The notes beneath the pieces were generated by a model. That model saw only the letters and a list, made by a program, of their open reading frames with translations. It made no database searches and was not told the origin of the DNA. Positions 13,325 to 14,271 of a stretch of DNA of 14,373 nt are shown piece by piece. This DNA comes from a virus, in UHGV virus genome UHGV-1698782; one strand, written 5' to 3'. The translations under genes were made by a program, and so were the position numbers. The number at the start of each line of letters is the position of its first letter. The stretch's first letter is position 1.

Positions 13325-13742
13325 TATTCAGCAGGTGCTTGAACGCTGGGGCGCATGGGTGGCCAATAATCATGAGGATGTGAGCTGGTCGCCCATTGCC
13401 GCCGGATTTAAGGGGCTGATCCCGTCAAAGGTTAAATCACGGCCTCAGTGTACCGATGACGATGCGCTGATTATCAGCAATTGCATGGCGCAACTGAACG
13501 TCAACAACAGCGATTTGCATGATTTTCTGTATGATTATTATGTGTTCGGGATGACGCTTATGTCACTGGGCCGTAAGCATGGGCGCTCTGATTGCTGGGC
13601 CGGGCGGGTACTGCAAAAAGCAGAAGGTGTTATTGAGGGGATGTTGATCATGCAGGGAGTAAAGCTGGAAATGGACAGGTACGTTGAGCGTGAACCATCA
13701 GGATCACAGGCCAGTCAGTTTGCCGGACGTGCGGGAAATTGA
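13317..13742 (+). CDS. Q: Late-gene antiterminator Q, 933W/phi21-like family
   Basis: [53 protein letters not shown]...[14 protein letters not shown]... matches the 933W-type Q N-terminus as I recall it. Start at the internal ATG at 13317 overlapping the ninH end. Confidence 0.85.
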
Positions 13743-13766
13743 AAGCGCGAGTTTTTACTGTAGAAT
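13739..13766 (+). promoter_or_regulatory. Promoter directly after Q (PR-prime position), also the likely promoter of the hok mRNA
   Basis: TTGAAA (13739-13744), 16 nt spacer, TAGAAT (13761-13766), overlapping the Q stop codon. Confidence 0.55.
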
Positions 13767-13884
13767 AGCTGCGGGTGCTTGAGGCTGTCTGCCTCGGGCA
13801 TGCAGCCGTAAGGCAGACAGAGAAAAGCCCCAGTTAACATTACGCGTCTTGCAGGACGCTTAACGTTAATCTGAGGCCAAATCT

Positions 13885-13938
13885 ATGACTTACAAACTTA
13901 GGTTAGCCTCTTACGTGCCGAAAGGCAAGGAGAAGTAG
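13885..13938 (+). CDS. Short leader ORF (17 aa) coupled to hok (mok-like function, candidate)
   Basis: GAGG RBS 8 nt before the ATG at 13885; translation MTYKLRLASYVPKGKEK; stop TAG ends 3 nt before the hok ATG and the ORF includes the hok RBS. Confidence 0.3.
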   Translation: MTYKLRLASYVPKGKEK

Positions 13939-13941
13939 GCT

Positions 13942-14097
13942 ATGAAGCAGCAAAAGGCGATGTTAATCGCCCTGATCGTCATCTGTATTACCGTCGTAGT
14001 GATAGCACTGGTAACGAGGAAAGACTTCTGCGAGGTACGAATCCGAACCGGCCAGACGGAGGTCGCTGTCTTCGTAGACTACGAATCTGAGAAGTAA
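13942..14097 (+). CDS. hok: Hok/Gef-family type I toxin (51 aa membrane peptide)
   Basis: MKQQKAMLIALIVICITVVVIALVTRKDFCEVRIRTGQTEVAVFVDYESEK is very close to the HokC/Gef pattern (MKQHKAMIVALIVICITAVVAALVTRKDLCEVHIRTGQTEVAVF...YESE); RBS AAGGAG 9 nt upstream. Confidence 0.85.
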   Translation: MKQQKAMLIALIVICITVVVIALVTRKDFCEVRIRTGQTEVAVFVDYESEK

Positions 14098-14271
14098 GAG
14101 ACCAGGCAGGGGAGTAATCTCCCGCCACCTCTGATGTGTCTGGCATCCTCAACGCACCCGTACTTTATTTGTCATATGCTCCGCAAAATGCAGGTTGTCG
14201 TTGCAACCAATGCGGTAATTTTTTGTGTGCGAGTGCTCAAAAAACGTTGATTTTCATAAAAGGATGATTTT

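Follow-up and report, generated by a model that had tools for sequence, protein, structure and literature searches.

The window, by which we mean the whole 14.4-kb stretch of DNA that was analyzed, is the early region of a lambdoid prophage. Positions 13300 to 14373 are 99.7% identical to Escherichia phage PhiR12_3 from E. coli ECOR13 (locus L001), on which our literature search found nothing, and the right end carries, in this order, NinG, NinH, Q (13317 to 13742), and hok/sok (Table 1). Prophages of E. coli O111:H8 and of further E. coli strains have the same Q-hok segment. PF06530, to which the Q protein of the window is assigned, is the Q21 family (PMC9388147). With Q of 933W, BP-4795, and ev203 this protein shares 67 to 76% identity, and it matches the PDB entry for Q21 (E value of 4e-8) in an alignment that spans residues 8 to 85 only; the allele differs from Q933W in the C-terminal third (residues 85 to 141). 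It is present in 29 of 5426 complete E. coli genomes, each time together with hok, and a composite query made of the end of Q and the post-hok sequence retrieved no hok-less copies of the allele from these 5426 genomes. The Q-hok junction is common to three classes of Q, which are 100/99%, 88 to 89%, and 73 to 75% identical to the Q of the window. This pattern indicates a single old junction, with divergence or recombination within Q afterwards.

Table 1. Features of the Q-hok/sok region, in window coordinates
Feature	Position	Strand	Basis or remark
Q antiterminator gene, 141 aa, Q21/933W family	13317-13742	+	Pfam Phage_antitermQ PF06530, 162 bits; context, outside the toxin-antitoxin locus
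hok promoter (-35 TTGAAA 13739-13744, 16-bp spacer, -10 TAGAAT 13761-13766)	13739-13766	+	Promoter scan
hok mRNA, ~388 nt (both ends putative)	13773-14160	+	5' end placed 7 nt after the -10 element; 3' end assigned, from the R1 analogy, to the end of fbi
tac, 5' arm	13773-13784	+	MFE-fold partner of 14147-14159; no variation among 14 distinct related loci
Sok-like antisense RNA, ~71 nt (13893->13823; predicted)	13823-13893	-	Coordinates transferred from the 933W sokW annotation
Truncated mok leader ORF, 17 codons + TAG	13885-13938	+	ATG homologous to the mokW start
Sok promoter (-35 TTGCCT 13928-13923, 17-bp spacer, -10 TAACCT 13905-13900; predicted)	13900-13928	-	Positional homology
hok toxin ORF, 51 aa, intact	13942-14097	+	Pfam HOK_GEF, 77 bits, E value of 7e-22, cutoff of 22
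fbi, 3' arm	14147-14159	+	MFE fold; equivalent duplexes in other hok loci
Start of next gene (ATGs at 14264 and 14272, in different frames)	14264-14373	+	Leads to a BcgI-like nuclease-methylase in relatives

A preliminary description, made from the sequence alone, had placed a 51-aa Hok-family toxin 200 bp past Q. The HOK_GEF match bears this out, with the hok ATG 199 bp after the Q stop codon, and the assignment to the Hok/Gef type is supported in common by Rfam RF01794, Pfam HOK_GEF, and the alignment with hokW/sokW. The toxin shares 47 of 51 residues (92%) with HokW. Annotation pipelines already label this gene Hok/Gef; what is new is its placement. The promoter proposed at the Q stop codon, TTGAAA-16-TAGAAT, was likewise recovered in place by our promoter scan. 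It agrees with the consensus at 10 of 12 positions and is the best of three promoter-like sites between 13300 and 14373, a region for which shuffled sequences give 1.0 ± 1.1 sites. The stop codon of Q (TGA, 13740 to 13742) lies inside its -35 hexamer. All three Q-hok classes, with Q proteins 74 to 100% identical to that of the window, keep AAATTGAAA-16-TAGAAT, and the spacer GCGCGAGTTTTTACTG is not conserved in class C loci. Because homology to 933W hokW starts at 13760 and takes in the -10 element and everything 3' of it, the -10 element and the start site are part of the hok cassette.

The Rfam family RF01794, named “sok,” matches 13773 to 13947 on the plus strand (119 bits, E value of 3e-27), from the 5' end of the hok mRNA to the hok start codon. 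In effect, this family models the hok leader, and the real Sok is the reverse complement of part of that stretch. The start sites of hok and Sok and the 3' end of the mRNA are putative, having been placed by homology. In the R1-like locus L090, 398 nt separate the 5' GGCGC from the end of fbi, a span that agrees with the published length of the R1 hok mRNA. No canonical terminator was found near the hok start. As for an intrinsic terminator of hok, the scan gave a minus-strand site only. The sole hairpin with a T-run, at 14181 to 14224, is a candidate 3' terminator of hok and is ambiguous in the fold.

The two ends of the hok mRNA are predicted to pair with each other. The preliminary description had noted that CGGGTGCTTGAGG at 13772 to 13784 is complementary to CCTCAACGCACCCG at 14147 to 14160, and RNA folding found the same fold-back: in the minimum free energy (MFE) structure of 13773 to 14170, positions 13773 to 13784 pair with 14147 to 14159 over 12 bp with a single bulge at 14153. 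The duplex is worth -21.5 kcal/mol, a value equaled by only 1 of 300 shuffles of the remaining mRNA. The preliminary description had made its case depend on conservation of this complementarity in homologous loci, and the duplex is indeed kept in divergent ones: R1-like, Klebsiella, and Citrobacter hok loci form 5'/3' duplexes of -19 to -23 kcal/mol from differing sequences (GGCGC/GCGCC in the R1-like and Klebsiella loci, GGUGCU/AGCACC in Citrobacter), including a U-A to C-G swap.

An antisense Sok RNA had been expected at roughly 13800 to 13900, and homology to sokW now puts the predicted RNA within that range, on the minus strand. Its promoter, which could not be pinned in the preliminary description, was located by positional homology: it occupies the position of TTGCGC-17-TATCCT in the R1-like locus L090, and its sequence, AGGTTAGCCTCTTACGTGCCGAAAGGCAAGG, is nearly invariant in related loci, although it scores under the threshold of the consensus scan. 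The predicted RNA would consist of a single-stranded 5' tail, a long hairpin, and a U-rich tail, with a folding energy of -30.3 kcal/mol (z score of -5.4; none of 200 shuffles was equally stable). SokW is 71 nt long (PMC8621323). Essentially no variation was seen in tac, fbi, the Sok promoter, or the hairpin among 14 distinct related sequences. The region that would pair with the 5' tail of Sok (13885 to 13905) is hypervariable between loci, with conserved flanks, which is the pattern expected for locus-specific antisense recognition.

Judged by its sequence, the locus belongs to the hokW subtype of hok/sok and is a canonical type I toxin-antitoxin system. Its closest characterized counterpart, hokW/sokW (mokW) of 933W and of the Sakai prophage Sp5, is 91% identical at the DNA level over 13760 to 14167, agrees with it in tac, fbi, Sok hairpin, and Sok promoter sequence, and likewise resides in a lambdoid prophage. 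There are four differences. (i) The 933W hokW gene is placed near the other end of the genome, whereas hok of the window directly follows Q. (ii) The -35 region reads TTGAAA in the window and TTGCGG/TTTGCG in hokW. (iii) The mok frame is open and in frame with hok in hokW, and it is stopped by TAG in the window. (iv) The Sok-tail target (13885 to 13905) differs, so that cross-neutralization between the two systems is doubtful. HokW is toxic and goes to the inner membrane, and its neutralization by SokW depends in part on RNase III and Hfq; once the prophage is induced, SokW vanishes and HokW is made about 1 h before the endolysin, and deletion of hokW/sokW halves phage release in Sp5 (PMC8621323).

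More-distant members of the family share the same plan. The founding member, hok/sok of plasmid R1, resembles the window locus in its weak hok promoter, tac-fbi pairing, leader ORF, and Hok of about 50 aa, and its convergent Sok promoter is placed identically (TTGCGC-17-TATCCT in R1, TTGCCT-17-TAACCT in the window). The R1 and window Hok proteins are about 40% identical, R1 mok overlaps hok in another frame, and R1 is a plasmid on which the established role of the system is postsegregational killing. The hokD (relF) gene of the E. coli K-12 Qin prophage and hokD-like plasmid loci are also borne by prophages or plasmids and are 82 to 84% identical at the protein level, and the PGAP label of the copy of the hok cassette in strain E7-1N7 is hokD. 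The neighbors of hokD differ from those in the window, being relBE in Qin, and hokD-like loci are not known to be linked to Q or to a restriction-modification (RM) system.

The leader ORF of the window differs from that of hokW. A short ORF 5' of hok had been reported before, and its start is homologous to that of mokW, which in the 933W annotation begins at the homologous ATG and is in frame with hokW. In the window, a CAG-to-TAG change at 13936 to 13938 ends this frame 3 nt ahead of the hok ATG; the change is limited to the window and its closest relatives, all other classes having CAG. This class-specific nonsense codon could be taken to mean that the locus is a decaying, silent hok relic carried passively with the RM insert, like several of the chromosomal copies of K-12. 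Null alleles in close relatives (TAA at codon 4 of hok in L019 and L020, frameshifts in L021, L027, and L101) fit that idea, as does the abundance of hok-like copies in E. coli genomes (median of 2 and maximum of 9 per genome). Because of these nulls, the toxin must be dispensable in the lineage and may be under weak selection there. Against decay, however, the window has kept the hok ORF, both promoters, tac/fbi, and the Sok hairpin intact, the spacing of the mok stop codon is compatible with termination-reinitiation, and Q-hok classes with Q genes diverged to 74% show conservation of the promoter and RNA elements. We therefore hold a silent relic to be quite improbable and regard mok of the window as a variant leader form that may be coupled to hok by termination-reinitiation. 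Such coupling would differ from the in-frame arrangement of mokW and could be weaker.

The position of the hok promoter raises the question of how it relates to the late promoter PR'. The PR' of Q21 has its Q-binding element between the -35 and -10 elements and carries a -10-like pause element in its initial transcribed region (PMC6606751). Mapping by dRNA-seq and Term-seq in the Sakai Stx phages put the PR' start beside Q and tR' 258 nt downstream (PMC7547250). The published Sakai PR' start coordinate (1,266,203) does not fit NC_002695.2, in which Q ends at 1,266,323, presumably because of a version offset; we used the PR'-tR' spacing of 258 nt instead, which fits the 933W sequence. A comparison of the sequence 3' of the Q stop codon in 80 loci that encode relatives of the window Q revealed a cassette that recurs across the Q subfamily: TTAC[AG]ATCGTAAAAA, about 6 nt, TATCAT, GATAAGAGTGGTTACATTGCCACGC, a hairpin, and a T-run. 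True PR' cassettes carry the pause element GGTTACAT about 12 nt past the start. In 933W and BP-4795, the annotated pR' cassette overlaps the Q stop codon, and loci of the 933W type have the cassette at this stop codon.

That is exactly the site taken by the hok promoter, and like PR' this promoter would be constitutive and produce a short transcript in lysogens. The preliminary description had proposed that the promoter at the Q stop codon is PR'/qut or a substitute for it and that the hok mRNA serves as a Q-modified late leader comparable to lambda 6S. Neither proposal stands up to the comparison. A search of the window that allowed up to 3 mismatches gave no match to the PR' promoter motif TTAC[AG]ATCGTAAAAA, and a pause element of the form TANNNT is absent from 13773 to 13817, the first 45 transcribed bases of hok. 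The hok promoter and the PR' cassette of the 933W-type Stx phages (PR'-qut-tR', or StxS) thus occupy the same slot and are both constitutive, yet they are nonhomologous, the former being devoid of the Q-binding motif and pause element. Furthermore, the hok -10 element and transcribed region are hok-cassette DNA that in 933W is located far from Q, and the absence of a canonical terminator close to the hok start, together with the ambiguity of the 14181-to-14224 candidate, also argues against a 6S-type leader.

The PR' cassette itself is conserved and intact elsewhere. The preliminary description had named a true PR'/qut further downstream as an outcome that would refute it, and this is where we found it: the cassette is 3.8 to 4.5 kb downstream of Q in all Q-hok loci that extend far enough (L001, L002, L016 to L021, L024, L025, L027, and L031), after the gene for a restriction S subunit and within about 10 bp of its stop codon. 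In PhiR12_3, it is at positions 10777 to 10815 of L001 (10777 to 10856 in a wider delimitation), 4334 bp past the Q stop codon, which would correspond to about window position 18076, past the window end; in L002, it is at 9244. No Rfam family for StxS matched to mark the displaced PR'-tR' region. The co-occurrence of the Q allele with the displaced PR' suggests that this Q may recognize it. Two other placements of the late promoter were considered and rejected. TAGAAT at 13761 to 13766 could have been the pause element of a promoter in the 3' end of Q, for which there is no acceptable -35/-10 pair upstream. The segment from 14168 to 14275 has weak hexamers only (TTGATT-18-TATGCT, with a -10 element that would contain the ATG at 14272), does not have the PR' motif, and accompanies hok and the RM gene in an unrelated context as well. 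We consider it extremely improbable that the hok promoter is PR' or replaces it.

By position, hok/sok can thus be described as the first module of an insert of 4.2 to 4.3 kb between the last codons of Q and the -35 element of PR'. Besides hok/sok, the insert carries a heptanucleotide repeat and genes for a BcgI-like nuclease-methylase and an S subunit. The nuclease-N6-methyltransferase is BcgI-alpha-like and about 700 to 850 aa long. The repeat, (GACCAGC)n with a 7-bp unit, begins at 14281 and runs past the window end, and the length of the insert varies with it (4201 bp in L002, 4334 bp in L001). This hypervariable repeat preceding a restriction gene is a by-product of our analysis that is of more interest than the toxin-antitoxin locus; a literature search for heptanucleotide phase-variable RM systems in E. 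coli prophages gave nothing specific. In strain E7-1N7, a block of hok, repeat, methylase, S subunit, and a remnant of a 933W-type PR' is found 3' of an unrelated Q, which indicates that the insert moves as a unit.

Tight linkage to RM genes in two different prophage contexts would also suit a locus that acts mainly as an abortive-infection partner of the adjacent RM system, the two forming a small defense island, rather than in addiction or lysis assistance. R1 hok/sok has been reported to lower T4 plating, in work that is cited in PMC8621323. The only experimental data on the closest homolog, however, favor help in lysis and phage release (PMC8621323). A role mainly in defense is unlikely in our estimate, though worth keeping in view, and it is not mutually exclusive with addiction and lysis assistance.

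Taken together, we put a probability of roughly 85% on the reading that this is a canonical hokW-type hok/sok locus which opens an insert between Q and PR', with PR' about 4.3 kb downstream and outside the window. Under this reading, the sigma-70 promoter at the end of Q would make an hok mRNA of about 388 nt from a start near 13773. Predicted pairing of tac with fbi would close off the full-length mRNA from both translation and Sok binding, as is established for plasmid R1. Slow 3' trimming, by analogy with R1, would then take off fbi and open the leader start region. As long as the unstable Sok is made, it would pair with this region and trigger decay of the mRNA. Upon loss of Sok, ribosomes would translate the 17-codon leader, stop at its TAG, and, if the two frames are coupled, go on to make Hok, and the 51-aa peptide would damage the inner membrane.

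A locus of this kind is likely to serve (i) in addiction, stabilizing the insert and the prophage, and (ii) in assisting lysis after induction, as hokW does in Sp5. As hok comes directly after Q within the early rightward operon, early transcription at induction is expected to read through hok in the sense direction, against the sok promoter, which could account for the induction-dependent loss of Sok. A more far-reaching proposal, which we think improbable, is that antiterminated early transcription, by opposing the convergent sok promoter and supplying extra hok-sense RNA, collapses Sok and releases Hok before the holin acts, making Hok a timed early effector of lysis or abortive infection. 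If this proposal is true, read-through would be a mechanism for the induction-dependent loss of SokW in Sp5, and Hok would secure a phase-variable RM insert.

As a toxin-antitoxin locus, the system adds little, being a close relative of a characterized one. Its significance lies in the arrangement: in this prophage lineage, Q and the late promoter are split by a self-contained insert of 4.2 to 4.3 kb. About 30 of 5426 complete E. coli genomes belong to this lineage, O111:H8 and other pathogen-associated strains among them, and within it, taking the promoter after Q as PR' in studies of late-gene or Stx-region regulation would select the wrong promoter. The phage also links a toxin-antitoxin system of type I to an apparently phase-variable restriction system, and the Q-insert-PR' arrangement is a natural test of how far Q can reach from its own gene.

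Two ATG codons, 8 nt apart and in different frames, both stand ahead of a perfect (GACCAGC)n repeat, which precedes a gene for a BcgI-like nuclease-methyltransferase. The copy number of the repeat is 9, 16, 19, 34, 56, 58, 64, 67, 76, or 83 in prophages that are otherwise near-identical, and it differs even between near-clonal strains (76 versus 83 in one case; 56, 58, and 83 in another). When the repeat length modulo 3 is 1, the first ATG (14264) is in frame with the nuclease-methyltransferase, giving a protein of 726 to 845 aa; when it is 0, the second ATG (14272) is in frame and the protein has 707 aa; and when it is 2, as in phage PhiR12_3, neither ATG is in frame. 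Such an arrangement suggests phase variation among three states of a restriction-modification gene carried on a lambdoid prophage. Short-read contigs break at the repeat, and PGAP labels it as a minus-strand “YXWGXW repeat-containing protein.” Our literature search found no description of the repeat and phase-variable gene.

Features of the window, of the PhiR12_3 locus (L001), and of related loci (L002 to L101)
Feature	Location	Strand	Remark
C4 antisense RNA	window 4544-4631	-	Rfam match, 78.9 bits
isrK	window 4656-4731	-	Rfam match, 64.8 bits
Rha/Ash-family ORF	window 3842-4627	-	
Q 3' end	window 13692-13742		16-residue tail
Two ATGs, then (GACCAGC)n	window 14264-14373; L001 6965-7653 and equivalents		runs past window end
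Cognate PR' cassette of the Q subfamily	L001 10777-10856; L002 9244-9527		outside window
STnc100 match	L001 10955-11171		
hok null, CAA to TAA at codon 4	L019/L020		
hok null, +1 frameshift	L021/L027, L101		“frameshifted” per PGAP

In some close relatives, hok has been inactivated by a stop codon or a frameshift, and the RNA elements of the locus are still intact. Position 13865 is G in the window and A in all 13 other distinct related sequences; in the long hairpin common to the hok leader and Sok, the G replaces a C·A mismatch with a C-G pair.

The C4 and isrK matches lie directly upstream of the Rha/Ash-family ORF, an arrangement that, judged by sequence, resembles the antirepressor control modules of P1 c4/ant or Gifsy-1 IsrK.

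The cognate PR' cassette is displaced from Q by about 4.2 to 4.3 kb. In PhiR12_3, an STnc100 match follows it by about 100 bp. In the related locus L002, the cassette leads into a complete 933W-type PR'-to-tR' (StxS) region, followed by tRNA-Ile/Arg/Arg and then nanS-p; stx genes are absent. The last approximately 15 codons of Q vary from class to class: the window tail has a sequence of its own, that of class C is GRGSSGRPVAEIQ, and that of 933W-type phages is ELPGGRTSVFYQRKNSLRS. Because the C-terminal residues of Q21 touch RNA polymerase (bioRxiv 10.1101/651190), the insert between Q and PR' may have altered the contact of Q with RNA polymerase.
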